Source: a virus (taxonomy: Duplodnaviria; Heunggongvirae; Uroviricota; Caudoviricetes). From it: a stretch of 64,000 nucleotides of DNA. The stretch is from IMG/VR virus record IMGVR_UViG_2737471993_000002. One strand, given 5' to 3'. The translations under genes and the position numbers were made by a program. The notes beneath the pieces are model-generated. The model was not told the DNA's origin, made no database searches, and worked only from the letters and a program-made list of their open reading frames with translations. Shown piece by piece: positions 3,001 through 63,298 of the stretch (positions are counted from its first letter, which is position 1; the number at the start of each line of letters is the position of its first letter).

Positions 3001-4435
3001 AGAGTCCACCGCGCGTGCCGATGGCGATGAAGCGTTAGCAAAGCGTGTCACTCAGCTGCAATCTAAGTTTGAAGGAGATATCAGCGCGGCGATTAGTACA
3101 GAACAGGAGGCTCGTACATCTGCCGATGAAGCTTTGACGAAACAAATAACTCAGCTTGAGTCGAAAGTAAGCAACGATATTGTCGCAGCCATTAAGGAAG
3201 AGCAAGAAGCCCGAGCAACGGAAGATTCGGCTCTGGCAAGCCAGATCACCCAACTTCAGGCAAAAGTTGATGATGATATTTCTGCTGCAATACGCAGTGA
3301 GCAGGAGGCTCGTGCGAGCGGAGACTCTGCGTTAGCTAAACAAATAAACCAGCTTCAAGCAAAGGTTGACGGTGATATATCCGCCGCCATCACTCAGGAG
3401 CAGGAGGCCAGAGCAAGTGCTGACGAGGCGCTCTCACGAGAAATTAACAGCCTGCGGGCGCAGACCGGAACTGACATTGCCGCAGCCGTTGCTGTAGAGA
3501 CAAAGGCAAGGACTGATGCCGATAGTGCATTGTCTACCCAGATTACGTCTCTTACAGCAAAAGCTAATGATCTCGAGGCGTCTCTTGCCAGAGAAACAAC
3601 GGCTCGTGCTGATGGTGATACCGCTTTAACAAAAGAGGTTTCAAGTTTAAAAGCACAGACAGCGAAAGATATTAGTGCGGCCGTTGCAGTTGAAACGCAG
3701 GCTCGAACTGATGCTGACTCGGCGTTGTCGTCTCAGATCACCAAGCTGACCTCTCAATACAAAGAGGATATTAAAGCGGCTGTAGCAACCGAAACGAAAA
3801 CGCGTACAGAGCAAGATGCTGCATTGGCGACTCAAATCACAAACTTAGAGTCTCAAACGGCAGCCAACATTTCCGCGGCGGTAACAACTGAAACGACAGC
3901 GAGAACGCAGGCAGATAATGCTCTGAGTGGGCGAATCGATACTCTGAAAGCAGAGGTGGATGGAAATACCGCGACAATTCAACAGCAGGCAACAGCTATT
4001 GCTGATACCAACAAAAAAGTGTCAACCGCGTGGACGTTGAAAATGGAAACTTCAACGAGCGGAGGGCAGAAGTATGTTGCTGGTATTGCGCTTGGTATCG
4101 ACACCACTGGCCTTTCTCAGTTTTTGGTGCAGGCTGACAGGTTTGGTTTGGTCAACTCTGTTAACGGGAAGATCACCACGCCATTTGTTATCGAAAACAG
4201 TATCGCCTATATGAATGGTGCGTATATCAAGGATGGCACAATCACCAATGCAAAAGTAGGCGATCTGCAATCTACCAATTTTGTTAGCGGTAGATCTGGA
4301 TGGCGGTTCGGCAAAAATGGAACGCTTGAGATCAACGGTAATAGCGGGGGTAATGGGCGACTGGTCATAAATGGTCAGCGGATTGACGTTTATGACGATA
4401 ACAACGTCCTACGAGTAAGAATTGGCCTTCTGTAA
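2..4435 (+). CDS. Host-specificity / central tail tip protein (lambda gpJ-like), 5'-partial at window edge
   Basis: Reading frame is open from nt 2 with no upstream stop (first Met at 107), so the gene starts outside the window. N-terminal region resembles J-type tail tip proteins; central part carries ~30-aa tandem coiled-coil repeats (..ISAAI..EQEAR..AD.AL..QITQL..) over nt ~3060-3960. Confidence 0.75.
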   Translation, partial: FDFVETPKSVNIQLKKTHYVTVSIDNDEADRVRVIMKFPSLRSIDKKTGDTNGTTVEYKFQIANGDSTFVDVVAEGEKSVGIKLTAKKTGVYYRSYELKLPKPGRAYKVRVVRITDDNSSQYLYNDTWVDSIGEIVDTPMNYPNSVLVGLKVNSEQFGSTMPSRSYLVRGLKIRVPSNYNESSNTYAGVWDGTFKLLSSSNPAWILFDLLTNARYGLGQYVSESMIDLGQLYQIGRYCDEEVDDGFGGKEKRFAINTQITSRQDAYRLIQDIAGAFRGMVFWAGGMVNIMQDSPSDPVMMFTNSNVKDGLFTYKGSARKDRPSVALVTYNNKEDGYKQNIEYVEDQDAMRRYGERKTEVVAFGCTSRGQAHRVGLWLLYTARMESDVITFTAGLDASFLMPGETVLIQNKYRAGKRNSGRIVAFTKNSVTLDAPVSLAKGGCFIRILNQEGKIVERDVLETGENITKVTFSKALSSAETPVLNGVWTITEPDLEPMRVRIVNIAQGETPGSFDITAVENNPSKYEAIDNGATLIPQNTTVLDPTYSKPSNLQITEGTYLSSPGNLSVKLTATWEGKSPEYWISWRRSDENNVSNWQSARVTEEQYEIVNVAENGRYDFQLYAVSFNGKKTEIISTVYQVLGTMTPPDAPTSLTAVGDYRNVILNWVNPDSVDLDHINVYASQTNNLDTAKLIAESASTTFTHAGLGDSETWYYWVRASNKRGMLSPPNSNLGTEATTRDVLSFLTGKITSSELGQALLEDINSKASQEAVDELNEHINQSVESLEGAVNDVKEDIAELDKQFSDNLADFEIKFNERSDALENAQTELKGEVSATIDKVNEAFEKIDATDAAIVEIENTVSEHDKALANTVEAIKAARDEAAALIAKESEARVEGDAANAKQLEVLQSTVEESSAAVEEMKKTVAEVDRASAELTTNIEALAKTNIDLALRQDEDQHKQMVNNAKIATTQKTFADDMSAMATKVEEIRVEIGEDIKASILEESTARADGDEALAKRVTQLQSKFEGDISAAISTEQEARTSADEALTKQITQLESKVSNDIVAAIKEEQEARATEDSALASQITQLQAKVDDDISAAIRSEQEARASGDSALAKQINQLQAKVDGDISAAITQEQEARASADEALSREINSLRAQTGTDIAAAVAVETKARTDADSALSTQITSLTAKANDLEASLARETTARADGDTALTKEVSSLKAQTAKDISAAVAVETQARTDADSALSSQITKLTSQYKEDIKAAVATETKTRTEQDAALATQITNLESQTAANISAAVTTETTARTQADNALSGRIDTLKAEVDGNTATIQQQATAIADTNKKVSTAWTLKMETSTSGGQKYVAGIALGIDTTGLSQFLVQADRFGLVNSVNGKITTPFVIENSIAYMNGAYIKDGTITNAKVGDLQSTNFVSGRSGWRFGKNGTLEINGNSGGNGRLVINGQRIDVYDDNNVLRVRIGLL

Positions 4436-4527
4436 TGTAGAAAAAAATATTTATATCGGTAAAAATAAGTAGGTACATACTTAATGGTGGGCAAGGATAG
4501 CCCACCAAATCAAGGAGCATATTCAAC

Positions 4528-7500
4528 ATGTGGTACAGGGAAGGTACTATCACATTTACACAGGGCAGCAATACTCTGGTTGGGGCAGGGACAGCCTGGA
4601 ACGTAACAGCTAATGGTGTGTTGCCGGGGATGATCGTCATTGGCCCCGACAATAAGCTGTATGAGATCAAGCGCGTAACCAGTGATACGAACATTGTTCT
4701 CTCAGAACCTTATACCGGCGAAACTCAGTCTGAAGTTCCGTGCCGAATCATTACGACCTATGAAGGCGACTTAACACAGTTTAGCGCGCGCTTTACAGCA
4801 CTAATGTCGCGTATGTCGGCTGATTCCAAGTCCATGCGCAGTTGGTTGACTGCTCTGGATGAGGTGACAATCGAGCGTGAAGACGGTACAGAAGTGACCG
4901 TTAAGCCGCTAATGCAGATCGTCAACGAGCACAACGAAAACGTTGAGTGGTATAAAAATAACACTGACGCGATTGATGCTGCTGGCGACAAAGCTCGTGA
5001 GGCGGCGGCCAGTGCTGCCGCAGCAGCAGAAAGCGCCAATACCGCTGGAGAAAAAGCCTCTCAAGCGTCTCAAAGTGCATCCGCTGCAGAGTCCTCAAAA
5101 AGCGCGGCGGCCACCAGTGCCGGTGCCGCGAAAACGTCTGAAACGAATGCTGCAGCGTCACAAAAATCTGCAGCCACTTCTGCATCCACCGCGACCACGA
5201 AGGCGTCAGAAGCTGCCACCTCAGCCCGGGATGCGGCGGCCTCAAAAGAGGCAGCGAAATCATCAGAAACGAGCGCAGCCTCGAGCGCCAGTAATGCCGC
5301 TTCCTCGGCAACGGCGGCAGGAAATTCCGCGAAGGCGGCAAAAACGTCCGAGACGAACGCCAGGTCTTCTGAAACGGCAGCGGGACAGAGCGCCTCGGCT
5401 GCGGCAGGCTCAAAAACAGCGGCTGCGTCGTCTGCCAGTGCCGCGTCAACAAGTGCCGGGCAGGCCTCAGCCAGTGCCACCGCCGCCGGAAAATCGGCAG
5501 AAAGTGCCGCATCGTCTGCTTCAACAGCCACAACGAAGGCTGGCGAAGCCACTGAACAGGCCAGCGCAGCAGCGAGGTCTGCTTCCGCAGCGAAGACATC
5601 CGAAACGAACGCGAAAGCGTCGGAAACCCGTGCAGAATCCTCAAAAACGGCAGCCGCATCGTCCGCCAGTTCGGCAGCGTCATCGGCATCATCTGCGTCT
5701 GCTTCAAAAGATGAGGCGACCAGACAGGCGTCAGCAGCGAAGGGCAGCGCCACGACGGCATCCACGAAAGCAACAGAGGCGGCAGGCAGTGCGACGGCAG
5801 CATCTCAGAGCAAAACTGCTGCTGAATCCGCTGCGACCCGTGCGGAAGCTGCTGCTGATCGTGCTGAAGAGATTGCCGGTGCAGTTGCGATGGAAGACGC
5901 AAGCCTTACAACTAAAGGTGTTGTGAAACTTAGCAGTGCTGTCGACAGCACCAGTGAATCGCTGGCCGCAACGCCAAAAGCAGTTAAAGTAGTCAATGAC
6001 AATGCGAACAGCAGGGTGCCATCTAACCGAAAAATTAACGGGAAAGCACTGACTGCGGATATCACATTAACGCCGAAAGATATTGGTACTTTAAATTCAA
6101 TAACGATGTCTTTCTCTGGCGGGGCCGGGTGGTTCAAACTGGCTACTGTTACAATGCCACAAGCGAGTTCCATCGTTTACATCGCATTGATTGGTGGCGC
6201 TGGTTACAACGTCGGCTCCCCACATCAGGCAGGCATTTCAGAACTGGTTCTACGAGCAGGCAATGGAAACCCCAAAGGGATTACAGGTGCTTTGTGGAAG
6301 CGTACAGCTGTCGGATTAACGAATTTCGCCTGGATCAACACATCCGGCGATACATATGATATTTACGTTGAGATTGGCAATTATGCGACTCGTGTAAATA
6401 TCCATTGGGATTGTACTGCAAATGCGACAGTTTCTATTTATACATCGCCAACATATTCAGCGAGTAAGCCTTCCAGCGTTACCGATGGTGTTGTTTATAC
6501 GATGTATAGCACACATCAGAAACCGACGCCGTTAGATATTGGAGCACTGCCAACAACCGGAGGAACAGTTTCAGGTCAGTTGTCTGTTACTGGTGGGATC
6601 ACCGGAACATTAAATGGTAATGCAAGTACAGCAACGAAATTGCAGACGGCAAGATCTATCGGTGGAGTTGGTTTCGACGGTTCTGCAAATATCAACCTTC
6701 CAGGTGTAAATACTACGGGTAATCAGAACACCACTGGTAATGCTGCAACTGCTACAAAACTTCAGACGGCAAGAACTATCGGCGGCGTGAGCTTTGATGG
6801 TACTGCGAATATTAATTTGCCAGGTGTTAATACGGCTGGTAATCAGAATACAACGGGCAACGCGGCTACTGCTACGAAGTTGCAGACTGCGCGTACTATC
6901 AATGGGGTGTCGTTTGACGGCTCGGCAAATATTTCCTTGTCGCCAGCAAATATAGGTTGCCCGGCATCTCCTACTGGTTGGTTAACTACAGGAAGTAATG
7001 GCGGAGCAATAACAACAGCACAGTTAGTGACGTTATTGCAAAATAATGGAGCATTTAACACAAAGTCATGGATTGCTCGATGTGCGTGGGCCTATGCCAA
7101 TAGTGCAACCATACCAAATAGTGAAACTGGTTGTGGCGTTATTCCATTGGCAGGAGCTGTTATAGAGGTATTTAATAACGGTAGTAGCTCAAACAATTAT
7201 ACGATCCGTATAACAACGGCCACAACGACGAGTGTCTCTGGTGCTCTCACTAATGCGGAGTTTATCTATGTATTTAATGGCACATATTATTCTCCGGGAT
7301 GGCGAAGAGTATATAACACGAAAAACAAACCAACAGCCTCTGATGTCGGTGCATTACCTCTTACCGGTGGTACATTATCTGGAGGTTTGACATCTTCTGG
7401 CGAGATCATTTCAAAATATGCAAATGGTTTCCGCATTGCTTACGGTAGCTTTGGGTTCTTTATCCGTAATGATGGATCGAACACATATTTCATGCTAACA

Positions 7501-12738: not shown

Positions 12739-12789
12739 TTATATTGGGCGTTTGTTACGCCCAATATATGAATTAAAGGATTGATACTA

Positions 12790-14484
12790 ATGGAATCGAT
12801 AGAATCATTTCTAAAAAATTTTCTAGTTTCAGATCATCGGGTTGCCGTCATAAAAGGAGATTGGGGCGTTGGTAAAACTCATTATTGGAATAGTTTTTAT
12901 ACTAAGCATTCTGAAGGATTAGATTTTAATGCATATTCGTATGTTTCTTTGTTTGGGGTTAACTCTATTGGTGATATTAAAAAAGCTCTTTATCATTGTG
13001 CCACACCAATTAATGAAAAGAAATATAAAGAACTAATTTTATCTGAAACGGATCGAACTATGATTCGTTATAGAAATGGGTTTTTGGGATGGTTGAAATA
13101 CAACTCCTTGTCAAAATTTTTAATACATTTCGGAAAGAACGATTTTTTTGGGTTCAAAACAGATAACCTGCTGTCATCTCTTGAGTATAAATTTGTTAAT
13201 AATTATTTGGTTTGTATTGATGATGTTGAAAGAAAAGGTAATTCGCTAGAAGTTAAAGAAATTATGGGGGTAATTGATGAATTGGCAAGAAGAAAAGGCT
13301 GCAAAGTTGTTCTAATTTTAAATGAAGATAATTTACATGATGAAACTGCAAAAAAACAGTTTTTAGAGTACAGAGAAAAAGTAATTGATGTCGAAATAAA
13401 ATATGATCCTACGCCTGAGAAGAACTTACGTAAAGTTTTTTATGAAACTGATTCTGATTTTCTTTTGTTAAAAGTCTTAGCAAATGACTTAGGCATTAAA
13501 AATATCCGTATATTAAATAAAATAAAAACATCTCTGGTTAATCTTAGGAATGAGCTAAGCTTGGCAGAGGATAAGGTTAGAGAAAGTTTTATCAATAGAT
13601 TGGTTCTGTTTTCAGTGGTTTACTATTCTGGTGTTCCAGGTGTTGATTATGCCTTGTTTAAAGAATCAATTAAAAACATACATGTATTTGATTACATGTT
13701 AGATGATAAAAAGGATGATTCTGTATATTCATTTATTAATAGTCTTGATATTATTTATGAACGAGCGGAAATTGCTTTCGATGATGACATAGATTTTTAT
13801 CTCAAGAATGGTTATCTTTCTACTGAAAGCAATATTCGAGGTATAATAGAAGAAAAAAATAAACAATATAAAGAACACAAGGCTTTATGTGAGGTTAACA
13901 ATGTTTGGGATATTTTTAGTGACTCATTCAAGGACAATGAATCTGAGTTTATTTCTAAGATAAAATGTGTAATTAACGACAATCTTTCACACATACCTGT
14001 TGCTCACTTCATAGGCTTGATTGATATCTTAAATAGATTGGAGATTGATTGTGATAGTTATATAGAGGCATATGCAGATGCCTTTGTTAGCCAAGATGAT
14101 GCTTATACTGCTTTTCGGAATTTGTATGTAGAGATATTTGGTAACGAAAAGTTAGGTCTGCTAATTCAAAAAAAATTGATGGATAAGAAGCCTGAAGAGA
14201 CTAATTTAGAGAATGTTTTATACAAAATAATTGAAGGCAAATTTAATCATAGTGACATAGCATATCTTAACAGTTTCTCTGAAGATGATTATTTAAAGTG
14301 GATATTATCCCGCAATCAGGATGCTTTGGATTTAGTGAGAAAGGGGTTGCTCAGATTCAAAAGTATGCAAGAACTAACAGAAGAACAGCAAAAAATCACG
14401 AATAAAGCAATAGGTGCATTAACGAAACTGGCCTCTAGATCAAGTCTTAACAAACTACGTGTGAGCAGATTGCTTAATAATTAA
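12790..14484 (+). CDS. KAP-family P-loop NTPase (accessory gene, candidate defence function)
   Basis: ATG at 12790 with AAAGGA 9 nt upstream (track start 12781 is TTG). Walker A GDWGVGKTHYW (GxWGxGKT hallmark of KAP NTPases) at aa ~24-34, Walker B-like LVCIDDVE. Very AT-rich relative to neighbours. Confidence 0.55.
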   Translation: MESIESFLKNFLVSDHRVAVIKGDWGVGKTHYWNSFYTKHSEGLDFNAYSYVSLFGVNSIGDIKKALYHCATPINEKKYKELILSETDRTMIRYRNGFLGWLKYNSLSKFLIHFGKNDFFGFKTDNLLSSLEYKFVNNYLVCIDDVERKGNSLEVKEIMGVIDELARRKGCKVVLILNEDNLHDETAKKQFLEYREKVIDVEIKYDPTPEKNLRKVFYETDSDFLLLKVLANDLGIKNIRILNKIKTSLVNLRNELSLAEDKVRESFINRLVLFSVVYYSGVPGVDYALFKESIKNIHVFDYMLDDKKDDSVYSFINSLDIIYERAEIAFDDDIDFYLKNGYLSTESNIRGIIEEKNKQYKEHKALCEVNNVWDIFSDSFKDNESEFISKIKCVINDNLSHIPVAHFIGLIDILNRLEIDCDSYIEAYADAFVSQDDAYTAFRNLYVEIFGNEKLGLLIQKKLMDKKPEETNLENVLYKIIEGKFNHSDIAYLNSFSEDDYLKWILSRNQDALDLVRKGLLRFKSMQELTEEQQKITNKAIGALTKLASRSSLNKLRVSRLLNN

Positions 14485-22774: not shown

Positions 22775-22973
22775 GCGGGAGAAGGAAACGCTTCATGAAA
22801 TCAGTAAGTGGTCAGAGTTCCCTGAGTACTGGAAGCCTAAAACGCGGGCTAAGTTAGAGCGGTTAGGGTTGGTTGCAAACGTTTCTGAAACGAAGTGTTC
22901 GGCCAACTACCAGTTAACTGATAAAGGGAAAGTATTGCTACAGCAATTAGTAGAATCAGGAGTGTTAAAATGA
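22758..22973 (+). CDS. Small protein, possible winged-helix DNA-binding
   Basis: 71 aa; YQLTDKGKVLLQQL resembles wHTH recognition regions; embedded between the small membrane peptides. Confidence 0.4.
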   Translation: MIVLSKREKETLHEISKWSEFPEYWKPKTRAKLERLGLVANVSETKCSANYQLTDKGKVLLQQLVESGVLK

Positions 22974-23122: not shown

Positions 23123-23409
23123 GCAATTTAACTTCTTGGGACTGGTGGTTGGCCACCTATTGCTTAGCGGCCGGAGTCGCATTCGCCTTTTACGTAGGTC
23201 AGTTAGTCGTAAAACTGTTGCTGATTAAATTTGCTAGTCATAAACGTATCGATGATGGTCTGTGGCGTCTTGGCACCCTGGTGGAAACTCGCTACGGGCA
23301 ACTTAAGGAGAACGAAACCATTACTATCCAAGCGAAACGATTCACTGCCACCATCACAAGAACACCTAGTCGTAGAGTGGCCTTGATCAAAAAAGTCACA
23401 ACCGAATAA
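23119..23409 (+). CDS. Small membrane protein (96 aa), paralog 3
   Basis: N-terminal TM helix and LWRLGTLVETRYG motif related to the two preceding peptides. Confidence 0.5.
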   Translation: MSNLTSWDWWLATYCLAAGVAFAFYVGQLVVKLLLIKFASHKRIDDGLWRLGTLVETRYGQLKENETITIQAKRFTATITRTPSRRVALIKKVTTE

Positions 23410-23420
23410 AAACACAATAA

Positions 23421-23439
23421 TAAGTATTTACTTACTTAT
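23421..23439. promoter_or_regulatory. Palindromic operator-like motif (TAAGTATTTACTTACTTAT)
   Basis: Same half-sites as the recurring motif family; lies just after the stop at 23409. Confidence 0.35.
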
Positions 23440-24187
23440 CTTTTATGTATAAGATGACTTTGTTTTCGTTGAGACGCGACTGTTTGAACTTAAATACAAG
23501 TGCAAACGAAGAAGTCTATCTGGCAGTAGCCTAATAAGCCAAACACCAGCGAGGTCAGTTTCCAGCCTCGTTACCGAAATGGGACACACTGAGCGAGTGT
23601 GATTGCAGAACGCAGGAGGGAACATGAGTGTTCCCTCCGATGAAGTAACAGAATGGGCGGTCGGTATATTTTCAACTCCATATGACTCCCGGATTCTTAG
23701 CCTCTGACCGCCCATCCTGTTACGTCATTTTGTTCAATTATGTCGTTTATACTGGGTTAAAAAGCGGCGACGTAGCCCGGCTGGTATGGTTAGCCAGCAC
23801 ACAACGTTGAGGCCATTACATTTTTATCAATTCTAAGGTTCTATTCACAGAGATACCGGCGAGCGTTGATATGTAACATGTTGGGCAAACATTCAATCGG
23901 AGTAGTGGCCTCAACGTTGTGAAGACAGGATTGTTGTGTAGGTTTAACCACTGTTGCCATTGGTGCCTGTTTTCACAACAAATGATTCCATACATCACAT
24001 TGTATAAATTACAAAGTAGGTGCTGTCCTCAGAAACATCATCTACTTAAAGATTTTGCCTTCTACTATTGAGCGAAGTCGAAAGCGTCTGGCACTAACGA
24101 AAAGTGCAAGTAGCGGTGCGTTTCCTGGCAGAAACTAAACCGTCGCGATTGGCACTGTTGAGTAATAAATACTGGCAGTGCCGAATT

Positions 24188-24262
24188 GATGGTGTAGCTC
24201 AGCGGTAGAGCAGTTGGCTGTTAACCAACTGGTCGGTGGTTCGAATCCACCCACCATCGCCA
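24188..24262 (+). tRNA. tRNA-Asn (anticodon GTT)
   Basis: Acceptor stem GATGGTG/CACCATC, anticodon loop CTGTTAA, T-arm GGTGG-TTCGAAT-CCACC, discriminator G and encoded CCA. Confidence 0.8.
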
Positions 24263-24267
24263 ATTTA

Positions 24268-24354
24268 GGGGAGTTAGTCCGTAGAGGTAGCGGTGTAGAC
24301 TGTAAATCTACTGTCATTGCGACTCGGGTGGTTCGACTCCATCACTCCCCACCA
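24268..24354 (+). tRNA. tRNA-Tyr (anticodon GTA), long variable arm
   Basis: Acceptor GGGGAGT/ACTCCCC, anticodon loop CTGTAAA, long variable arm, T-loop GGTTCGACTCC, encoded CCA. Confidence 0.75.
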
Positions 24355-24358
24355 AATT

Positions 24359-24434
24359 GCCGGTTTAGCTCAGTTGGTAGAGCGCCTGCCTTGTAAGCAG
24401 GATGTCAGCGGTTCGAGTCCGTTAACCGGCACCA
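24359..24434 (+). tRNA. tRNA-Thr (anticodon TGT)
   Basis: Acceptor GCCGGTT/AACCGGC, D-arm GCTCAGTTGGTAGAGC, anticodon loop CTTGTAA, T-loop GGTTCGAGTCC, encoded CCA. Confidence 0.8.
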
Positions 24435-24658
24435 ATACAACGATAAGATCATTACGGTTAATCGTCGTTCATGTGCACAATGACTGGTCGAAAGGTAGTG
24501 ATCTTACCGTTGTGGTGGATTCGCAGACTGATGCGATAGCTTTCTTGGATGTTAGGGAAATGCGGCCGCAAATCTTCCCTTTCGCGAGCGGTGATCGTCC
24601 GTAGTCCTAATTGGCTGCACCGTATGCCGGAGATTCAGTACCGGCCACCACAATGGCC

Positions 24659-24745
24659 GGAGAGTAGGGAGCATGGTGCTCAAGCGGTCTTGAAAACCGT
24701 CCCATTGCGCAAGCGATGATGGTTCGATTCCATTACTCTCCGCCA
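24659..24745 (+). tRNA. tRNA-Ser (anticodon TGA), long variable arm
   Basis: Acceptor GGAGAGT/ACTCTCC, anticodon loop CTTGAAA, long variable arm, T-loop GGTTCGATTCC, discriminator G plus CCA; D-arm is atypical. Confidence 0.6.
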
Positions 24746-24747
24746 GA

Positions 24748-24825
24748 CACAGCGTTGAGCGGTTTGGCCTTTTAATCAACCAGATTAAGACTCCGCTAAC
24801 ATAAACCAGACCGCTCAACGCTGTG
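24748..24825. repeat. Long inverted repeat immediately 3' of tRNA-Ser
   Basis: 20-bp arms CACAGCGTTGAGCGGTTTGG / CCAGACCGCTCAACGCTGTG around a ~38-nt loop; arm sequence is related to the inverted repeat at 23798-23921. Confidence 0.6.
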
Positions 24826-24900
24826 ATAGACAATTACGGCAGACGTACTTAACCATAGCTTGCTAACATCCTAGCAACACTTTTTTTCAGCGCAAAATTC

Positions 24901-24924
24901 AAAGGGGCTTCGGCCCCTTTTTTG
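24901..24924. terminator. Bidirectional rho-independent terminator
   Basis: GGGGC-TTCG-GCCCC hairpin flanked by A-run upstream and T-run downstream; between tRNA cluster and convergent minus-strand gene. Confidence 0.75.
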
Positions 24925-24940
24925 AAAGCAATGGGCAAGT

Positions 24941-26275
24941 TCATGCCAAATTATCCAGATTTCTTTTCTTTTTTTCAATTATATTTCTCGCGCCAGAAAA
25001 AATTTTACTCAAAATAATTGGTTTGCTTGCTCTATTATTAAGATGTAACAACGCGCTATAAAATACATAGTTATCTATTTTACTATTTAAGGTATTCCCA
25101 AGCTTCCCGTTATATGTGCTATTAATAGTATTAAAATATACATGTTCAGGACCTATATTACAAATACCCCTATCAACTCGCTTTAAATAATGTTTAACTA
25201 AAGAAATAGCATCTTCCTTATCATTAATAACATAAAGTCCTGAGCGTTTACCTAGCTTGCTGTCCGAGAATAATTTATAACCAATAAGTTCATTTAACGT
25301 ATTATCCACTTTTGTCAACTCTTTGTTGGCAATCTCCAGATAATACTCAATCTCTTTCTCCATATTACTTATTAAAGAGTTAAATTCTGCTCGTAACAAA
25401 TCACCACCAGGTGATTTATAACTCCATAAAATTGAATTGGTAATACGTACTACGTCAGATATTTCTGGTTTCTCTGAATAGTTTTTGTATCTAGTGCAAA
25501 TAATGCTGTGCTTTATATATTCTCTAACTAATGATCGATAATCCCTTTCGAAAAGGTTTTTGACATCTAGTCTTCCATTGCTTGTTGTTATTAGGGTGGT
25601 GTTTAAAACTGGGTCGCCTTCAAAAAAATTATATTTATTTAGTAATCGTTTTAGCTTGTGTGAATTATGTGATGTTTCGCCATAATAATTTATCCCAAAA
25701 ATAGCAATTATTAGCATAACATCAGGAGTGATGAAATGTCGTAATTGCTCGGCATAAACTTTTTTCTCTTCGATTTTCGAAGATGGAGAGTAAAAACCTT
25801 TGTCTATATATTCTAATATTGAAACAATATTACTAACATAACGTATAAAAACTTGATTCATTACAACGGAATCATAAACCTGATGCAAATAATCTACTCT
25901 CAAGTTGTTTTTTATTTTTTCCCCTGTACTAGATGATAACTCTTCTTTTACCTGCCCAAGTAGCTTTTCGTGGTGCTCCAGCAATGTTTTAAACCATTGT
26001 TCAAATGATGATTTTCTTGCCTCAGTTAATGAATCTGATGTTATCTGGACAGCTTTCATAGCTGCTTTCGCACTTTTCTTTGCTTCATAAGCGTTCCATG
26101 CTGTAGCACAAAAAGCTGCCGCCGTGATGCAACTGGTAAAAATAGAAATCCTATCTGCAACATTCAAGCTCCAGAACCAATCAGACGATGAAATCAAAAC
26201 CACAGATATTACGGGAACAATGAAAATCAAAACAGGCATGTATGTACTCGCTCTAATAGTTATTAGTCGAGGCAA
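24941..26275 (-). CDS. AT-rich membrane-anchored protein of unknown function (candidate accessory/defence gene)
   Basis: 444 aa (alternative start at Met13); two N-terminal TM helices then large soluble domain; AT content far above the flanks; next to tRNA cluster and recombinase. Confidence 0.5.
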   Translation of the reverse strand: MPRLITIRASTYMPVLIFIVPVISVVLISSSDWFWSLNVADRISIFTSCITAAAFCATAWNAYEAKKSAKAAMKAVQITSDSLTEARKSSFEQWFKTLLEHHEKLLGQVKEELSSSTGEKIKNNLRVDYLHQVYDSVVMNQVFIRYVSNIVSILEYIDKGFYSPSSKIEEKKVYAEQLRHFITPDVMLIIAIFGINYYGETSHNSHKLKRLLNKYNFFEGDPVLNTTLITTSNGRLDVKNLFERDYRSLVREYIKHSIICTRYKNYSEKPEISDVVRITNSILWSYKSPGGDLLRAEFNSLISNMEKEIEYYLEIANKELTKVDNTLNELIGYKLFSDSKLGKRSGLYVINDKEDAISLVKHYLKRVDRGICNIGPEHVYFNTINSTYNGKLGNTLNSKIDNYVFYSALLHLNNRASKPIILSKIFSGARNIIEKKKRNLDNLA

Positions 26276-26332
26276 ATATTATATAAATCTCGTTATGATT
26301 TACAGACATGTATACGTATTGCTAATTATCAC

Positions 26333-26370
26333 CAACAAATGATAGGTGTGTACATATCTATCATTTGTTG
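26333..26370. promoter_or_regulatory. Perfect 13-bp inverted repeat (operator-like) upstream of glutaredoxin gene
   Basis: CAACAAATGATAG-n12-CTATCATTTGTTG; half-site shares TGATAG/CTATCA with the motif at 38448. Confidence 0.5.
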
Positions 26371-26417
26371 TAAAATTAATGTATACGCTATGAATACACT
26401 AATAATATGAGGTAATC

Positions 26418-26663
26418 ATGACTATCGTTATCTACGGACGAGATAACTGCTCATACTGCAAACGTGCGGTCGAGCTGGCGAAGCAACTAAAGGGACATGG
26501 CTACGGTGATTATGAGTACATCGACATCACTACTGCCGGTATCGATAAGGAAAAACTTAGCGAAATTGTTGGTAAACCTGTAGAGACTATCCCCCAGGTA
26601 TTGATCGATGGCCAACCGATTGGCGGATACACAGAACTGGCTGCATACGTCAGCACCCTCTGA
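26418..26663 (+). CDS. Glutaredoxin (NrdC/NrdH-like redoxin)
   Basis: 81 aa with CSYC active-site motif near N-terminus and glutaredoxin-like fold signature (TIPQVLIDGQPIGGY). Confidence 0.8.
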   Translation: MTIVIYGRDNCSYCKRAVELAKQLKGHGYGDYEYIDITTAGIDKEKLSEIVGKPVETIPQVLIDGQPIGGYTELAAYVSTL

Positions 26664-26667
26664 TTTT

Positions 26668-26692
26668 AACGGCTCACAGGAGCCGTTTTTTA
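26668..26692 (+). terminator. Rho-independent terminator
   Basis: AACGGCTC-ACAG-GAGCCGTT hairpin followed by TTTTT directly after the glutaredoxin stop. Confidence 0.7.
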
Positions 26693-26874
26693 TTCCCACC
26701 AAACTCACTCCTGTTTCCCTTAAAATTCAAAAAACAACAGCTAAATGATTCCATACCTACTATGTATGGAATCATTGCTGAAAATGAGTTACTTTTACTC
26801 TTGATCCTATAAGAATCTATGCCTAATATACTGTTTACTTATACAGTGAATCGGCGTAACTCGGTGATTGTCAT

Positions 26875-27978
26875 ATGAAAAATAGCTTTGACAGAGCACG
26901 CGCTGCGGAGAACACCTCAAAAGAGGCGATTGAGTATCTCGAAAGAGCATCTCAAATGCAGGCCGTTATGATCTCGCAGGTTAGCAATGATATGAGATTC
27001 TCGGACGCATTCATGTTATTCACTCGCTTATCTCTGCTGATAACCAGACGTCGGCCAGAGATCGCTGTTCATTGTATTTTGATACATGTTTTGCCGCACA
27101 TTGCTGATGTAAAAGTAAGTGACATTAATAGGTTCATGGTGAACCAACTGGTCAACCCTCTAATATTGGATGGCAAAATTGTTATGGGCCGCCGCGTTTT
27201 CTCTCTGATGAAGCAGTTCCTTAGCTGGTGCGCCTTCCAGGGGATGATAGACGTGTCACCGCTAAACGATATGTCACTAAACAAAGTTGCCGGTGGCGCA
27301 AAGCCCACACCTCGCGAGCGGAAGCTGACCGACGCAGAGGTATGGGTGTTCTGGAATATATGGGACTACTTCAATGTGTGTGCTGGTACAAAATGGGCGG
27401 CCAGGCTATGTCTTGTATCCGCAAGACGACCTGACGAAGTACTGCGGGCTAAAAAAAGTGAGTTCAATCTTAAGCGTGGGGTTTGGAATCAAGGCAAGAG
27501 GAACAAATCTGCCCGTGAGCATTCTCTGCCTTTAAGCTCATTAATGCGCACTTGTATTGAAGAGTTGTTCGAATATGGTAAAGACAGCCAGTGGCTCGTG
27601 CCTTCGAATAAAAAAATCGGGAAAGACCTTCCTATGTCTAAAGTGGCAATAGCCCAGGCATTACGTCGTATTCTGGAACGACCAGAACTGATGGAGCTTG
27701 AGCCATTTACACCCCGAGATTTGCGCCGTACTGCGCGTAGTTACTTCCCAGCATTAGGCATAAGCCAGGAGGTATCACGTAAAATCATGAACCACAGTCT
27801 TGAGGGGATAGATCGGGTCTACGACCGGCACGATTATATGGACGAGATGCGAGACGCCTTAGAAAGTTTCTCGACGTACATCGCATCAATCGTAGAGCAA
27901 CCGGATTTAGACGAAATTGACCACAAATTTAAGGGAGATCGTCTATCAACAGAGCTTATTCGTGTAAATTTTTCATAG
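26875..27978 (+). CDS. Tyrosine recombinase / integrase
   Basis: Conserved boxes ARRPDEVLRA (R..E), RDLRRTARSYF (box II R), MNHSLEGIDRVYDRHDY (H...Y catalytic region); 367 aa. Confidence 0.7.
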   Translation: MKNSFDRARAAENTSKEAIEYLERASQMQAVMISQVSNDMRFSDAFMLFTRLSLLITRRRPEIAVHCILIHVLPHIADVKVSDINRFMVNQLVNPLILDGKIVMGRRVFSLMKQFLSWCAFQGMIDVSPLNDMSLNKVAGGAKPTPRERKLTDAEVWVFWNIWDYFNVCAGTKWAARLCLVSARRPDEVLRAKKSEFNLKRGVWNQGKRNKSAREHSLPLSSLMRTCIEELFEYGKDSQWLVPSNKKIGKDLPMSKVAIAQALRRILERPELMELEPFTPRDLRRTARSYFPALGISQEVSRKIMNHSLEGIDRVYDRHDYMDEMRDALESFSTYIASIVEQPDLDEIDHKFKGDRLSTELIRVNFS

Positions 27979-28359
27979 AGACTTTATGGCCTCAACAACC
28001 TTTTGTGATGCGCCTTTCTCTTTACCGAATCGCTCGTTATATGCAGCAAGAACCTGTTTTTCGTCCTCGTTAAGAGGAGCAGTGCCTTCTTTGTATAAAA
28101 ATGCTGCGAGTTCGGGTTGGCGTTCTTCCAGCACCATCATCATAAGACGACTTGGCTCAATGCCCAGTGCCAGCGCCAGCGGACGAACCTTATCGATAGG
28201 CAAAGGAATTTTGCCGCTTTTAATTAAAGAAAGGTTGTTGGCGTTTTTATACCCAATTGTTTTGGCTATCTGGGCCTGGCTCATAGGTGAGGATTCAATC
28301 AACCCTGCGATAAAAGCAGCGTAGCGACTTTCTATAAATTCAATCTTGTTATCAGACAT
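27973..28359 (-). CDS. HTH transcriptional regulator (Cro/CI-XRE type)
   Basis: MSQAQIAKTIGYKNANNLSLIKSGK helix-turn-helix; convergent with recombinase; divergent AT-rich promoter region at 28360-28610. Confidence 0.6.
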   Translation of the reverse strand: MSDNKIEFIESRYAAFIAGLIESSPMSQAQIAKTIGYKNANNLSLIKSGKIPLPIDKVRPLALALGIEPSRLMMMVLEERQPELAAFLYKEGTAPLNEDEKQVLAAYNERFGKEKGASQKVVEAIKSL

Positions 28360-28610
28360 GGTTACAACCTTTGCGCGTTCAATTCTCTCTGGTAAGTGCT
28401 TACCGATATTACATCAAAGGTTAGGGTTGTAAAGCTATTATCATTTTTTTCGATAGGCACTTAAAAGACCGGTTAAAGGCCATTGCACGGAGAAAAATTA
28501 GCCCAAAACAGGTAAGAAAATCAACTTGCATATGATATGAATGTATTCAGTATTGATACAAATTTTAGTAGTATTCCTTACCATAGTATAAGTTAGAATG
28601 GATTGATTGA

Positions 28611-28823
28611 ATGAACACCACTATTTCCAGCCTAATCGCTCTTGAGATCGGACACGTACAGAAATTAGCTGATGAGTGTGTAGCTGACATCCTCACCGAT
28701 CTACCGAATGAGCAGATTCAGGTTGGTGTGAATGACACAACTGGCTTTATATTCGAACTTAACAACAAACGCTTCACGCTTCTCAATACCGGCTCCTGGT
28801 CTTTAGCCGTCAGAATCTGTTAA
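28611..28823 (+). CDS. Hypothetical small protein
   Basis: 70-aa ORF in divergent region; weak support. Confidence 0.3.
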   Translation: MNTTISSLIALEIGHVQKLADECVADILTDLPNEQIQVGVNDTTGFIFELNNKRFTLLNTGSWSLAVRIC

Positions 28824-28921
28824 CCCCTCTTCTCCCTGCGCGAATGGCTTAGTTCCCTGTTCGCGCAGTGCTACATTAAACACACTAGTAAATAATTTGT
28901 TTTCATAACAAAGGATTAGCC

Positions 28922-31030
28922 ATGTCTAAAAAACGTTCCATCAAAGAGGTTCAGGACTTCCGTGACAGTGTAAAACGAGTAGTCGCTCTCCTTTCAGGTA
29001 AAAACATCCCTGTTGCAGAACGAGGGGACGACGCTTATGTACGCTATAACGATGATGGAGAGCCAATTCTCGTAAACATCCCATCAATCCCGGATAACGC
29101 AACACCGGCATTGATGAATGCTGTGCGCGGATTTCTCGATCATGAGGTTGCTCACATTTTGTTTACCGATATTCGTGTGTCCAACAAAATGAGAGAAAAA
29201 GGACGCGTTCCTTCCTGGTCGCTATGGAATGCCTTAGAAGACGTGTTCATCGAGCGAAAAATGGGTCAGGTCTTTAACGGAACAAGACGTAATCTGATGG
29301 CAACTCAGCGCCTTATAATCGAAAAAGTCTTTAAACCAAAGGCTTCAGAGGCTATTGCTTATTGTGGCAAAGATCAGCGCGCGCTTTTTCTAAACTTCTT
29401 TCTCTGTCCGGTTGTAAGAGCCTGGGATGGCCAAGCACCGTTCGTAGATTTCATGGATGAATATTGGCCTGTCATTGAGAAACCAATTTCATTATTAAAA
29501 GAACATGGTATCGATGTGGCCGTGCGTAACATGTCTTGCACCGAGGATTGTGTAAAGGTGGCTGCGACCATAGCTAAGATCCTCAAAGACACTGAAAGTG
29601 AAAGCAAAGGTAAGGAGTCAGCTCCGGGAAAAACTTCCGATCCTTCAGACGCTGACCAGACGGATGCCTCTGGAGAAAACAATGAAGACAACGAAGATCA
29701 TGAGACACCCTCAGCGTTAGATAATCACAAATCTATCAAATCAGAATCACACAGTAAGCACAAACATGATAATAACGACAGTGATGATTCAGATAATTCT
29801 GAATCATCAGAAACAATATTCGATGATACAGAAAATGATAAAGAGGTATCAGATTCTGGTGCTTCTGATAACGCGGCGTCAGAATCATTTACCACTGACC
29901 ACGAAAAAAGAAAATCGACAGAAGACGGCTCTTCAGACATTCCAACTCCGTCAAAAATGAGTCTGGAAGAGGCTTTAGAGGAGTTGGATAGCATGGAAGA
30001 TGAAGTCGGAGGCATGACAGAAGATGCGCTATCCGAAACGATTAAAAGCGAGTTAACAGAAAGCTCGAAAAGCGAATACAGGCCATACAATCGCTCATAC
30101 GACTTCATCGGCTCGATTGATCAGGCAGAAGCCCATATCAAACGGCTTATTAAAACATTCTCCGATATTGATTTAGGTGGATATCCAATCAGCCGTTATC
30201 GCATCGTTCCTGAAGGCAACCAACTCTTCGACAAATATATTGAAAAGCACCTTTCGTCAGGTGTTTCGTCGACGCTGGCAAAAGACCTGGAACGTGCAAT
30301 AGCAAGCAGAAACAGAGTTCAGTTTATACCTGGCCAGCGTCGGGGGCGCATTCATGGTTCAAGTATCTACAGATTAACAATGAATGATGATCGCGTGTTT
30401 CGTAAAAAAGAAGAATCTAAAGCCGTTAACGCCTGTGTTCAACAAGTGATTGATTTATCGGGTTCAATGAGTGGCGAAACGATAAAACTAGCTCTTGCAA
30501 GTGCATATACCATCGCCGATGCACTTGATCGAATAAATGTTCCCAACATTATCACCGGCTTCACTACATTTGGTAGTCATATGGCGGCAGGAGAACTTAA
30601 GGCTGTCAAGTATGAGTTCTCTCGCTTTGAATCTTTAATGCTACCTATCATCAAAAATTGGAATGAAAAGGTAAATTCTCGCGAAGTTCGCTCACGTATG
30701 GGGTGCGTAGGCTACACATTCCCACTTCTTAATAACGTGGATGGTGAAAGCATAGCCAGCCTTGCATCGTTATTTTCCGGTCGCATGGAGGACAGGAAGA
30801 TCATGCTTGTTCTGAGTGATGGCGCGCCGTGGGCTGTTGGGAGAGGTTTTGACGCTCATTTGCGTTCAGTTGCGAAGCAAATTGAAACGCAGACTGATAT
30901 TGATTTGATGGCAATTGGCATCATGACTGACGCACCGGAGAGATTTTACTCAAATCATGCCCTGGTAACGAGCGTTGATAGTCTTGGTTCATCTGTAGTT
31001 ACTGAACTATCTCGTATCATTTTAAAGTGA
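28922..31030 (+). CDS. vWA-domain protein (CobT-like) with acidic Ser/Asp-rich disordered insert
   Basis: C-terminal von Willebrand A MIDAS motif DLSGSMSG; central ~150-aa highly acidic S/D/E-rich region; paired with downstream AAA ATPase. Confidence 0.65.
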   Translation: MSKKRSIKEVQDFRDSVKRVVALLSGKNIPVAERGDDAYVRYNDDGEPILVNIPSIPDNATPALMNAVRGFLDHEVAHILFTDIRVSNKMREKGRVPSWSLWNALEDVFIERKMGQVFNGTRRNLMATQRLIIEKVFKPKASEAIAYCGKDQRALFLNFFLCPVVRAWDGQAPFVDFMDEYWPVIEKPISLLKEHGIDVAVRNMSCTEDCVKVAATIAKILKDTESESKGKESAPGKTSDPSDADQTDASGENNEDNEDHETPSALDNHKSIKSESHSKHKHDNNDSDDSDNSESSETIFDDTENDKEVSDSGASDNAASESFTTDHEKRKSTEDGSSDIPTPSKMSLEEALEELDSMEDEVGGMTEDALSETIKSELTESSKSEYRPYNRSYDFIGSIDQAEAHIKRLIKTFSDIDLGGYPISRYRIVPEGNQLFDKYIEKHLSSGVSSTLAKDLERAIASRNRVQFIPGQRRGRIHGSSIYRLTMNDDRVFRKKEESKAVNACVQQVIDLSGSMSGETIKLALASAYTIADALDRINVPNIITGFTTFGSHMAAGELKAVKYEFSRFESLMLPIIKNWNEKVNSREVRSRMGCVGYTFPLLNNVDGESIASLASLFSGRMEDRKIMLVLSDGAPWAVGRGFDAHLRSVAKQIETQTDIDLMAIGIMTDAPERFYSNHALVTSVDSLGSSVVTELSRIILK

Positions 31031-38447: not shown

Positions 38448-38478
38448 TGATAGATAATAAGTAAGTACTGATCTATCA
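38448..38478. promoter_or_regulatory. Palindromic operator-like motif (TGATAGATAATAAGTAAGTACTGATCTATCA)
   Basis: Outer arms TGATAGAT/ATCTATCA enclosing TAAGTA..TACT core; upstream of SSB gene. Confidence 0.45.
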
Positions 38479-38560
38479 TTTAACAGCTCGAAAGAGCCAC
38501 GAATGAACGAAAGCCCAACGCGCATAGCGCCATCGGCCAAATCACAACAAGGAGAAACAC

Positions 38561-52112: not shown

Positions 52113-52118
52113 TTTCAT

Positions 52119-52139
52119 TGATAGGTAAGTGCTTATCTA
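52119..52139. promoter_or_regulatory. Palindromic operator-like motif (TGATAGGTAAGTGCTTATCTA)
   Basis: Motif-family member ~45 nt upstream of nrdA; followed by hairpin/terminator. Confidence 0.45.
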
Positions 52140-52146
52140 TTAACAT

Positions 52147-62482: not shown

Positions 62483-62713
62483 ATGTCATACCCGACTAAT
62501 GTCGTTGCGCTCGTAGAGAGCGATTTTCTGGCCCAGGCTCGTGAAATGATGAAAGATCGTGAGCAGGCTTTCAACTTGTACGAATGGGCAATTAAGTGCT
62601 TGCATCTTGGCGAGCATCGCGAACTTGTTGAACAGCTTTTAGGTGAGTTGATCAATGAGGTGTTTGCCTTGAATGTTCAACTACATGGTAGAGAAAATAA
62701 TCAATCACAATGA
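62483..62713 (+). CDS. Hypothetical small protein
   Basis: ATG at 62483 with AGGAA SD; 76 aa. Confidence 0.45.
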   Translation: MSYPTNVVALVESDFLAQAREMMKDREQAFNLYEWAIKCLHLGEHRELVEQLLGELINEVFALNVQLHGRENNQSQ

Positions 62714-63298
62714 TAGATAAGTACAAACTATTCATAAGGTGAATTGTAAGTGCTAAGATCTGATAGTTTCCAGTCGTAGACTGGAGACTCGACCTGATGG
62801 GTGGGGGTAAGCGTCACTGGCGTCAGGTTTAAAAAAGCTCACTACCAGCGTAGAACTGGTGCCGTTTAGGTGTCGGGGAAGGGGGAACCAAAGTGAGCGG
62901 AGACAAGGGTCACTTTATGATTGTCGAGTCTGGGGTGTTTCGAGAGGTTGAATCCAGTACTCCCCTTCATAAAGTGTGGGAAGATCTCGGTTCTGGGGTG
63001 CTGTCATCCATAACTTCCCAAGTCTAAGCTGGCAGTAGACTTAGACCATAACTTTTCAGGTTATGAAACGACCAGGTTGGTGAGGGATTTTTATACTCAC
63101 CTCCCTGGGAGAGTATTACCTGAAAAGACAACCTCTCACTTCGTTCGAGGTGAACTTCACTCACTTCGTTCGTTCAGTTCAGGTTTATAAAAACCTGTTC
63201 TGGGAAGTAATTTGTTTATTTTAATAATTATTAACACGCACGCGTGTGCGCACGCGCGAGGAAAAAAAATCGGCGCGGCGCTTGATTCAGGAGTTTAT

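Follow-up and report, generated by a model that had tools for sequence, protein, structure and literature searches.

The 64,000-nucleotide stretch of viral DNA analysed here (IMG/VR record IMGVR_UViG_2737471993_000002, hereafter the window) carries, just beyond a cluster of tRNA genes, a slot that probably holds a moron: one polymorphic gene encoding a putative membrane-anchored abortive-infection protein of the putAbiC family, set between neighbours that look like ordinary backbone. By its sequence the window is an SSU5-type phage-plasmid of Escherichia coli, since the region studied is 98% identical to the Escherichia phages CMS-2020a and Cyrano and since the backbone, present in 340 of 5426 complete E. 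coli genomes, is located on plasmids at 395 of its 397 matching places; Salmonella phage SSU5 is a more distant relative. E. coli, Shigella, Salmonella and Klebsiella commonly carry phage-plasmids of the SSU5 type. What an initial annotation of the window had taken for a mobile island beside the tRNA genes is thus reduced to one accessory gene within a conserved backbone.

The features of the slot are as follows, with residues numbered in the 432-residue product.

24901..24923, both strands: bidirectional intrinsic-terminator-like hairpin, AAA-GGGGC-TTCG-GCCCC-TTTTTT, from sequence, folding and blastn break points
24941..26239, minus strand: gene for an AbiC/AbiP-like (putAbiC family) protein of 432 amino acids, predicted to be membrane-anchored, from the open reading frame, homology and AlphaFold
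Residues 1-23: first transmembrane helix (TM1)
Residues 31-51: probable second transmembrane helix (TM2)
Residues 52-100: juxtamembrane helix
Residues ~131-207: putAbiC domain
Residues 208-432: variable C-terminal half
Residues 299-326: hypervariable patch
26278..26354, minus strand: candidate promoters of the AbiC-like gene, from the sequence and a consensus scan
26339..26364: 26-bp operator-like palindrome, ATGATAGGTgtGTACatATCTATCAT, centred on the -35 of a promoter candidate for the glutaredoxin gene (grx)

How is the slot delimited? The window was compared by blastn with Cyrano, two CMS-2020a records and PhiR41_1 (L001-L004) and with the plasmids pG749_2 and p4_0.2 (L005/L006). Homology to the relatives covers the tRNA genes and ends at 24924-24927, 1-4 nt past the terminator. 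It resumes at 26406-26418, at the start of the glutaredoxin, in pG749_2 and p4_0.2, and at 26742-26744 in Cyrano, both CMS-2020a records and PhiR41_1. As these alignments have it, the replaceable unit is a single-gene slot that extends from 24925 to ~26330 (1.4 kb). In pG749_2, whose flanks are 97% identical to those of the window, the slot allele encodes 420 amino acids and is only 30% identical as a protein, with a GC content of 0.32 and the same orientation. The slot of p4_0.2 is filled by a Gp49-family gene instead, and that of Cyrano by other small genes. In phage-plasmids of Salmonella, Klebsiella, Enterobacter and Escherichia albertii the corresponding place is taken by homologues 30-50% identical to the window protein.

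Across PLSDB a homologue of the AbiC-like gene is found in 133 plasmids, about one-sixth of the ~790 that carry the integrase of this element at ≥60% identity. Three further homologues have other surroundings: one adjoins int-xis where a lambdoid prophage ends, one shares a mobile-element cargo region with Phd/Fic and a HEPN-Toprim protein, and one has UmuDC, an HNH nuclease and recombinases as its neighbours. The gene is therefore one that mobile elements carry singly, alone in its slot on the phage-plasmid and with homologues in a prophage end and in cargo regions.

Two further observations concern the reach of the gene and of its interval. In the 74-kb plasmid pEc631_2 (L007, NZ_CP040265.1) a piece of 1.86 kb at 3853-5712, 99.8% identical to window 24452-26311 and comprising tRNA-Ser and the AbiC-like gene, is flanked by IS66-family and IS2 remnants, so that the gene has also travelled, or survived, outside an intact phage-plasmid. 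In the Klebsiella-type relatives L009 and L020 the interval between the AbiC-like gene and the integrase is larger and holds genes for PhoH, a Sequestin-domain protein, Gp49, glutaredoxin and a YafO-family toxin, to which L009 adds a colicin-E1-type immunity gene. Given this gene-rich interval, the stretch from the tRNA genes to the integrase would be an accessory-gene hotspot of the SSU5 supergroup.

The slot stands out in composition. Over 24925-26330 the GC content is 0.324, against a window mean of 0.454 (z = -3.4), within the lowest 1.4% of 1299-nt segments. The neighbouring genes are typical in this respect (grx, 0.48; the integrase gene, int, 0.466; the helix-turn-helix, or HTH, regulator, 0.444), so the AT-rich island of the initial annotation shrinks to the AbiC-like gene and its promoter region and does not extend to the other three genes. 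The same annotation had a minus-strand gene ending at 24941 next to tRNA-Ser, and the open reading frame does have its stop there; the length of 444 amino acids, on the other hand, needs correction to 432. A TATAAT box runs across the listed TTG start at 26275, which no ribosome-binding site precedes. Translation most likely begins instead at the ATG of 26239, with GAG 7 nt upstream; the product is then as long as a database protein with 99% identity to it (P0001) and as the RefSeq version of this gene.

Two promoter candidates for the gene were found by consensus match, a perfect TATAAT at 26283-26278 with a weak -35, and TGTACA-18-GATAAT at 26354-26325. The TATAAT region is also conserved beside the 50%-identical allele of relative L011. 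At the other end of the slot, GGGGC-TTCG-GCCCC at 24904-24917 is bounded by an A-run and a T-run and folds at -14.1 and -13.2 kcal/mol on the respective strands; this terminator-like hairpin would end the tRNA transcript on the plus strand and that of the AbiC-like gene on the minus strand. The succession of tRNA-Ser and bidirectional terminator described earlier is borne out by ARAGORN and Rfam for the tRNA and by folding of the hairpin on both strands. The AbiC-like gene is the sole open reading frame in the slot and is oriented against backbone transcription. With its promoter-like sites, its terminator hairpin, its deviant GC content and its replacement by other genes in relatives, it is, to judge from these features, a single-gene moron with predicted promoters. 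Phage morons in general likewise have promoter candidates and a terminator of their own, deviant composition, an orientation counter to the operon and a patchy presence. A difference is that, where other morons are plainly present or absent, relatives often carry a far-diverged homologue from the same family in this slot.

What kind of protein does the slot gene encode? Residues 132-207 of the 432-residue form score 21.4-21.5 bits with PF16872 (putAbiC, 'putative phage abortive infection protein'), whose cutoff is 22. The family connection is carried by the relatives of the window protein. Among 61 full-length relatives, 48 match PF16872 at E≤0.01 (best E 1.4e-11), and at E≤0.1 the PADLOC models for AbiC and AbiP are matched by 12 and 6 of them, respectively. 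P0006, which is 36% identical to the window protein across 97% of its length, carries PF16872. A profile of the close family, run against 1.84 billion proteins, finds P0035 with an E of 2.6e-32, profile positions 4-318 corresponding to protein residues 23-341. P0035 matches PADLOC AbiC (1.3e-6) and AbiP (2e-4), and proteins related to it, in Serratia, Yersinia, Pectobacterium and Enterobacter among others, are annotated as 'putative phage abortive infection protein'. We therefore place the 432-residue protein, at the level of family, as a divergent member of putAbiC (AbiC/AbiP). The enterobacterial PF16872 proteins are of similar length (~430 amino acids) and are linked to it through the profile match to P0035; they differ in that they pass the Pfam threshold and, to go by contigs of 4.6-4.9 Mb for several of them, are often chromosomal, the slot subfamily being more divergent and labelled 'hypothetical'.

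The family is small, with 13 clusters in a set of 5.8 billion proteins and 82 clusters at 50% identity in the profile search of 1.84 billion. A profile search of the larger set with a wider alignment, confined to 8000 candidates, added little. Searches of NCBIfam with the window protein gave nothing useful, and PHROGs gave only the unnamed family phrog_18168. The ten most distant relatives yielded a single weak AbiP match in PADLOC, and a profile scan of genome contigs with the close-family alignment found only loci of Lelliottia and Pantoea. The window protein had no tblastn match in the phage collection; by this search the gene is absent from the deposited phage genomes of the SSU5 group. 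A literature search for 'putAbiC' found nothing, and papers on 'Abi_C' of Staphylococcus aureus were set aside because that name denotes a different, HEPN domain.

The N-terminus has the membrane anchor that characterizes the AbiC/AbiP family, as seen both in hydropathy and in the AlphaFold helices. TM1 lies above the Kyte-Doolittle threshold of 1.6, with a mean hydropathy of up to 2.36, and a short loop with a net negative charge occupies residues 20-30. AlphaFold gives a confident model (pLDDT 81.8, pTM 0.71), nearly all-helical, with one helix at 2-18 and a single long helix at 30-102. Six Lys/Arg occur in residues 52-80, the 29 residues that follow TM2, within a juxtamembrane helix rich in Ala and Lys; the positive-inside rule predicts from them that the large domain is cytoplasmic. 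A search for structural neighbours with the model returned none that was informative, no OB-like or nucleic-acid-binding fold being detected, and a sequence search of the PDB found no relative.

An N-terminal membrane anchor on a temperate element also brings superinfection exclusion to mind. Might the protein block DNA entry at the inner membrane without killing the host? Exclusion proteins that act at the inner membrane include T4 Imm, P22 SieA and lactococcal Sie2009. The allelic diversity of the slot would fit specificity for particular incoming phages, and the homologue beside the lambdoid prophage integrase is in a moron position. We regard exclusion as unlikely, though an alternative to be taken seriously. 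The sole detectable homology is to AbiC and AbiP, which act after DNA entry; the K/R-rich segment predicts a cytoplasmic domain, which is better suited to sensing intracellular phage products; and the known Sie proteins are mostly much smaller. An effect of this kind of element on lytic phages has been reported: in Klebsiella, an SSU5-like plasmid cuts the plating of lytic phages by 1-2 logs (PMC8969562), for which exclusion may be among the explanations.

One might ask whether the gene does anything at present. A GC content of 0.32 would make it a target of H-NS silencing in enterobacteria, and the database annotation of the protein is 'hypothetical protein' only, as for a decaying or silenced passenger. 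We consider a passenger without current function very improbable. All alleles are intact, full-length open reading frames, invariant residues persist across alleles that are 30% identical, and the confident AlphaFold model points the same way. Between close alleles dN/dS is 0.32-0.37, and the gene is therefore under purifying selection.

Conservation is unevenly spread along the protein. Across eight diverse alleles, identity is ~55% in TM2 and the juxtamembrane helix, 45% in the putAbiC domain and 24-26% in the C-terminal half. In comparison with the allele of p1107-111K (L025), 13 of 20 replacements fall within residues 299-326, where 13 codons are non-synonymous and 3 synonymous. An allele divergence of 30-50%, or the presence of unrelated genes in the slot, fits an arms race over specificity. 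We suggest, tentatively, that the slot may be a polymorphic anti-phage specificity locus, in which at least five AbiC/AbiP-like alleles (30-50% identity) have been swapped between near-identical backbones, with a conserved killing module joined to a fast-evolving sensor that includes residues 299-326. If so, this would be the first functional AbiC/P-type system in Gram-negatives, and one that current defence finders miss.

By what steps would such a protein abort an infection? In the scheme we favour, the 432-residue protein would be anchored in the inner membrane, its large domain facing the cytoplasm, and the variable C-terminal half would recognise a component of an infecting competitor phage, as AbiP does with the major tail protein or nucleic acid. 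The conserved membrane-proximal module would then damage membrane function or block a step after DNA entry, the infection would abort, and clonal hosts carrying the phage-plasmid would thereby be protected.

The known systems offer partial parallels. AbiC has two transmembrane helices, AbiP a single one; without its anchor AbiP does not work, and this protein, a binder of nucleic acid, has the major tail protein as its trigger (PMC13064643, PMC12184496). AbiC (Prf), of the Lactococcus plasmid pTN20, resembles the slot system in being a single mobile-element gene whose product has N-terminal transmembrane helices followed by a helical extra-membrane domain (PMC13064643). The putAbiC core is common to AbiC and to relatives of the window protein, as the best PADLOC AbiC match and PF16872 indicate. 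The differences are that the present gene is on a Gram-negative phage-plasmid, that its product is short of both the AbiC model and the Pfam cutoff, and that, compared with a PADLOC model of 306 positions, it adds the variable half 208-432 after the putAbiC core. AbiC reduces production of the major capsid protein; the window protein is likened to it in sequence family and architecture. AbiP belongs to the AbiC structural group and is also a membrane-anchored single protein, and a logic of sensor plus anchor is plausible for both; its single transmembrane helix, its nucleic-acid-binding domain and its major-tail-protein trigger set it apart from the window protein. The best functional analogy is PdpSau of S. 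aureus prophages, a membrane-anchored protein of a temperate element, AbiP-like in its predicted structure, which shields lysogens from lytic phages by abortive infection, the membrane being depolarised (PMC10127798). PdpSau has 278 amino acids and one transmembrane helix, and it works in another host clade against other phage targets; the likeness drawn here is one of function and architecture.

The 26-bp palindrome at the right-hand end of the slot is one of a set. The motif ATGATAGGTnnGTACnnATCTATCAT has five matches at four intergenic sites (26339-26364, 38454-38479, 52118-52143 and 62710-62735), where 0.02 are expected in the 64-kb window. These sites place it upstream of grx, of the gene for a gp32-like single-stranded DNA-binding protein (SSB) and of the gene for NrdA, the large subunit of ribonucleotide reductase (RNR), and 476 nt upstream of an RNase H gene. 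A similar motif occurs in the same intergenic region beside the different AbiC-like alleles of L005 and L011. It looks like the operator of a DNA-metabolism regulon of the phage-plasmid, and, as grx shares it with the RNR and SSB genes, the glutaredoxin would be part of the DNA-metabolism set of the element.

Does the AbiC-like protein, whose gene adjoins this operator, serve the element's own biology? It could in principle be the membrane toxin of an addiction module, a lysis factor or a factor of a replication compartment; it has a membrane anchor, and YafO toxin-antitoxin genes are found in the same variable region of Klebsiella-type relatives. We think such a role improbable. Only about one-sixth of the integrase-bearing plasmids counted above have a homologue, and viable relatives, isolated phages such as Cyrano included, hold unrelated genes in the slot. 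The list of open reading frames in the slot contains no partner antitoxin, and the family is solitary in other mobile-element cargo regions.

Several points weigh against an abortive-infection role for the slot gene. The window protein itself is just under the Pfam cutoff for PF16872 and matches no PADLOC model even at E ≤ 1, so that its link to AbiC and AbiP is transitive, running mainly over a putAbiC core of 60-80 residues. Of the two N-terminal transmembrane helices in the initial annotation, the first holds up in the Kyte-Doolittle profile and the second does not reach the threshold of 1.6 in this allele: segment 31-51 is uncharged, with a hydropathy of ~1.3 (summed by hand over residues 31-49). 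Of 11 homologues, 4 exceed 1.6 in the corresponding segment, and a second membrane helix remains probable. If the 26-bp operator also controls the promoter of the AbiC-like gene, the gene might be co-regulated with the lytic DNA-metabolism genes, and not expressed in lysogeny. To our knowledge no enterobacterial PF16872 protein has been characterised experimentally, nor has a phenotype been reported for any. AbiC and AbiP seem to work by different means, neither yet fully worked out (PMC13064643), and AbiC is not among the systems reported from SSU5-group elements in a DefenseFinder survey (10.1101/2025.09.12.675607).

On balance the earlier guess of an abortive-infection or exclusion effector gains support from the putAbiC homology, the AbiC-like architecture and the accessory nature and foreign composition of the gene, all of which suggest, as far as sequence can, a divergent new member of a known and mechanistically obscure family. 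If the gene is active, it would give the host allele-specific protection against other phages, which is relevant to phage therapy and to plasmid persistence. It would also extend the AbiC/AbiP class to Gram-negatives, and the natural allele series would be handy for mapping sensor and effector parts. The significance is modest unless experiments show allele-specific defence.

The genes and sites on either side of the slot are these.

24188..24745, plus strand: tRNA cluster, backbone and left neighbour of the slot, from ARAGORN and Rfam (tRNA-Asn 24188-24262; tRNA-Tyr 24268-24354; tRNA-Thr 24359-24434; tRNA-Ser 24659-24745)
24748..24825: inverted repeat directly 3' of tRNA-Ser, with 20-nt arms, 95% complementary, and a 38-nt loop
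26418..26663, plus strand: GrxA-family glutaredoxin (NF008401, 109.4 bits against a cutoff of 84)
26668-26693, plus strand: glutaredoxin terminator, from folding
26744..26776: 33-bp palindrome, AATGATTCCATAC-ctactat-GTATGGAATCATT (arms of 13 bp, spacer of 7 bp), located ~100 bp upstream of the start of the integrase gene
26875..27978, plus strand: tyrosine recombinase (the integrase), 367 amino acids, with P4-type central and catalytic domains (PF00589, E 2.9e-10)
27973..28359, minus strand: XRE-type HTH regulator, 128 amino acids, convergent with the recombinase gene and overlapping it by 6 nt
28611..28823, plus strand: conserved open reading frame of 70 amino acids (orf70; phrog_2627), the last gene of the interval missing in SSU5

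The glutaredoxin, tyrosine recombinase and convergent HTH regulator named in the initial annotation are confirmed by the NF008401 and PF00589 matches and by the 6-nt overlap. The glutaredoxin has its CxxC active site as CSYC at residues 11-14 of the translation, in keeping with the GrxA family. In the recombinase, as read by eye, the HxxR box is RDLRRT, with Arg where His is usual; the Arg of ARRPDE, the His of NHS and the Tyr of VYDRH look intact.

Are these genes part of an island? The initial annotation proposed a nested mobile module at the tRNA genes, and in its full form the idea is that 24941-28359 is an integrative island which its own recombinase brought into the tRNA locus; the regulator would act as the switch, and the cargo would consist of the membrane protein and the glutaredoxin. 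P4-type recombinases often target tRNA genes, the recombinase here has P4-type central and catalytic domains, and a 13-7-13 palindrome adjoins its gene. The comparison with phage SSU5 (L012, JQ965645) is also favourable. SSU5 has nothing between tRNA-Asn and CobT and no counterpart of window 24264-28823; missing from it are tRNA-Tyr, tRNA-Thr and tRNA-Ser, the slot and all the genes from grx through the integrase and HTH regulator to orf70, and no other part of its genome encodes an integrase homologue. The interval from tRNA-Asn to CobT is an indel at a deep divergence, and it could equally be a loss in SSU5.

The remaining evidence runs the other way, and we hold an island to be quite improbable. 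Sister plasmids that differ in their slot gene have an unbroken run of grx, integrase, HTH regulator and the genes beyond at 97-98% nucleotide identity, and grx is contiguous with the integrase in L005, L006 and L011. The order of int, HTH and orf70, with the HTH gene beside the recombinase gene, is the same in all the E. coli, E. albertii and Klebsiella-type relatives for which the locus was read. The recombinase is found in 934 PLSDB plasmids (the ~790 noted above being those at ≥60% identity) and is 82-100% identical in amino acid sequence from E. coli to Klebsiella. Tyrosine recombinases are among the persistent genes of the SSU5 supergroup (PMC7969092). The GC content of grx, int and the HTH gene is typical, and grx has an operator in common with the RNR and SSB genes of the element. 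Close relatives do not gain or lose the block as a whole; they vary in the 1.4-kb gene alone, or in the interval that reaches as far as the palindrome.

The direct repeat that insertion at a tRNA gene would leave was also looked for. No repeat links the 3' end of tRNA-Ser, or of any other tRNA of the cluster, to 24750-24945, 26640-26880 or 28350-28930, and local alignment of the tRNA 3' ends with downstream sequence gave best scores ≤ 22, ~11 matches, with no att-like direct repeat. Comparison with relatives thus divides the block: grx, the recombinase, the HTH regulator and the 70-residue reading frame, syntenic and typical in GC content, are by all appearances ordinary backbone genes and not a mobile island; the AbiC-like gene is neither conserved nor typical. 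The SSU5 indel speaks for a nested module, which the comparison otherwise does not support. As an aside, it may be SSU5 that shed a maintenance or lysogeny module, one which nearly all of the plasmid relatives retain.

The 33-bp palindrome raises questions of its own. It folds at -21.1 kcal/mol (z -7.9), is unique as a palindrome within the window, and forms the right-hand mosaic junction in L001-L004. A 12-nt arm core, ATGATTCCATAC, is invariant in every relative that has the palindrome, and this 12-mer half-site is kept at equivalent places in SSU5 and in plasmids of Klebsiella, Enterobacter and Salmonella. The spacer varies among relatives (CTACTAT, ATAGTAG, TCTTTAG, TTGGTAG and CTATTAA), and its orientation relative to the integrase is opposite in L003, L004 and L009; in L004 the palindrome is longer by 5 nt per side. 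A motif of 17-20 nt, AATGATTCCATACAT(C/A)(T/A)CAT, occurs in five copies, at 22968, 23980 and 26743 on the plus strand and at 26777 and 32808 on the minus strand. Two of the copies make up the palindrome, and another falls on the start codon of a conserved open reading frame of 50 amino acids (MIPYI...).

What might the palindrome be for? It has the layout of a lox/dif-type site, with inverted arms, an asymmetric spacer and a tyrosine recombinase gene alongside, and is a candidate core site for the recombinase; since single half-site copies lie elsewhere (22968, 23980 and 32808), a candidate operator fits equally well. Cre/loxP of phage P1 is the obvious parallel, P1 also being a plasmid-prophage with a tyrosine recombinase gene beside a site with inverted arms (13-7-13 here, 13-8-13 in loxP). 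The recombinase of the window is P4-type, not Cre-like, and the half-site copies elsewhere suit a regulator site; the likeness is drawn from sequence. Dimer resolution is an expected need of phage-plasmids (PMC7969092), and by analogy the recombinase and palindrome most likely serve plasmid multimer resolution or a similar maintenance role. A further possibility is that the palindrome is a lox-like site of the recombinase and also a point at which the accessory region is shuffled. The spacer flips would not be expected under conservative recombination, so template switching within the palindrome may explain them.

Two other proposals for the palindrome found no support. Integron-like capture of cassettes is discouraged by the spacer flips and by the lack of repeated attC-like sites at the cassette borders. 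For an inversion ending at the palindrome in PhiR41_1, the ligase-tRNA segment is not among the listed high-identity matches of that record.

On the left of the slot, the tRNA cluster is kept in E. coli relatives, and an Rfam scan of 23300-29000 found nothing besides the tRNAs. The inverted repeat at 24748-24825 belongs to the conserved backbone block that reaches 24924. In phage SSU5 a string resembling GCTGAACGGTTTGG of this repeat occurs 3' of tRNA-Asn.

Elsewhere in the 64 kb, the sole other strongly AT-rich spot is a gene at 12781-14484 on the plus strand, with a GC content of ~0.29, whose 567-residue product is a KAP-family P-loop NTPase (PF07693, E 1.6e-5); it is possibly another accessory or defence-type gene.

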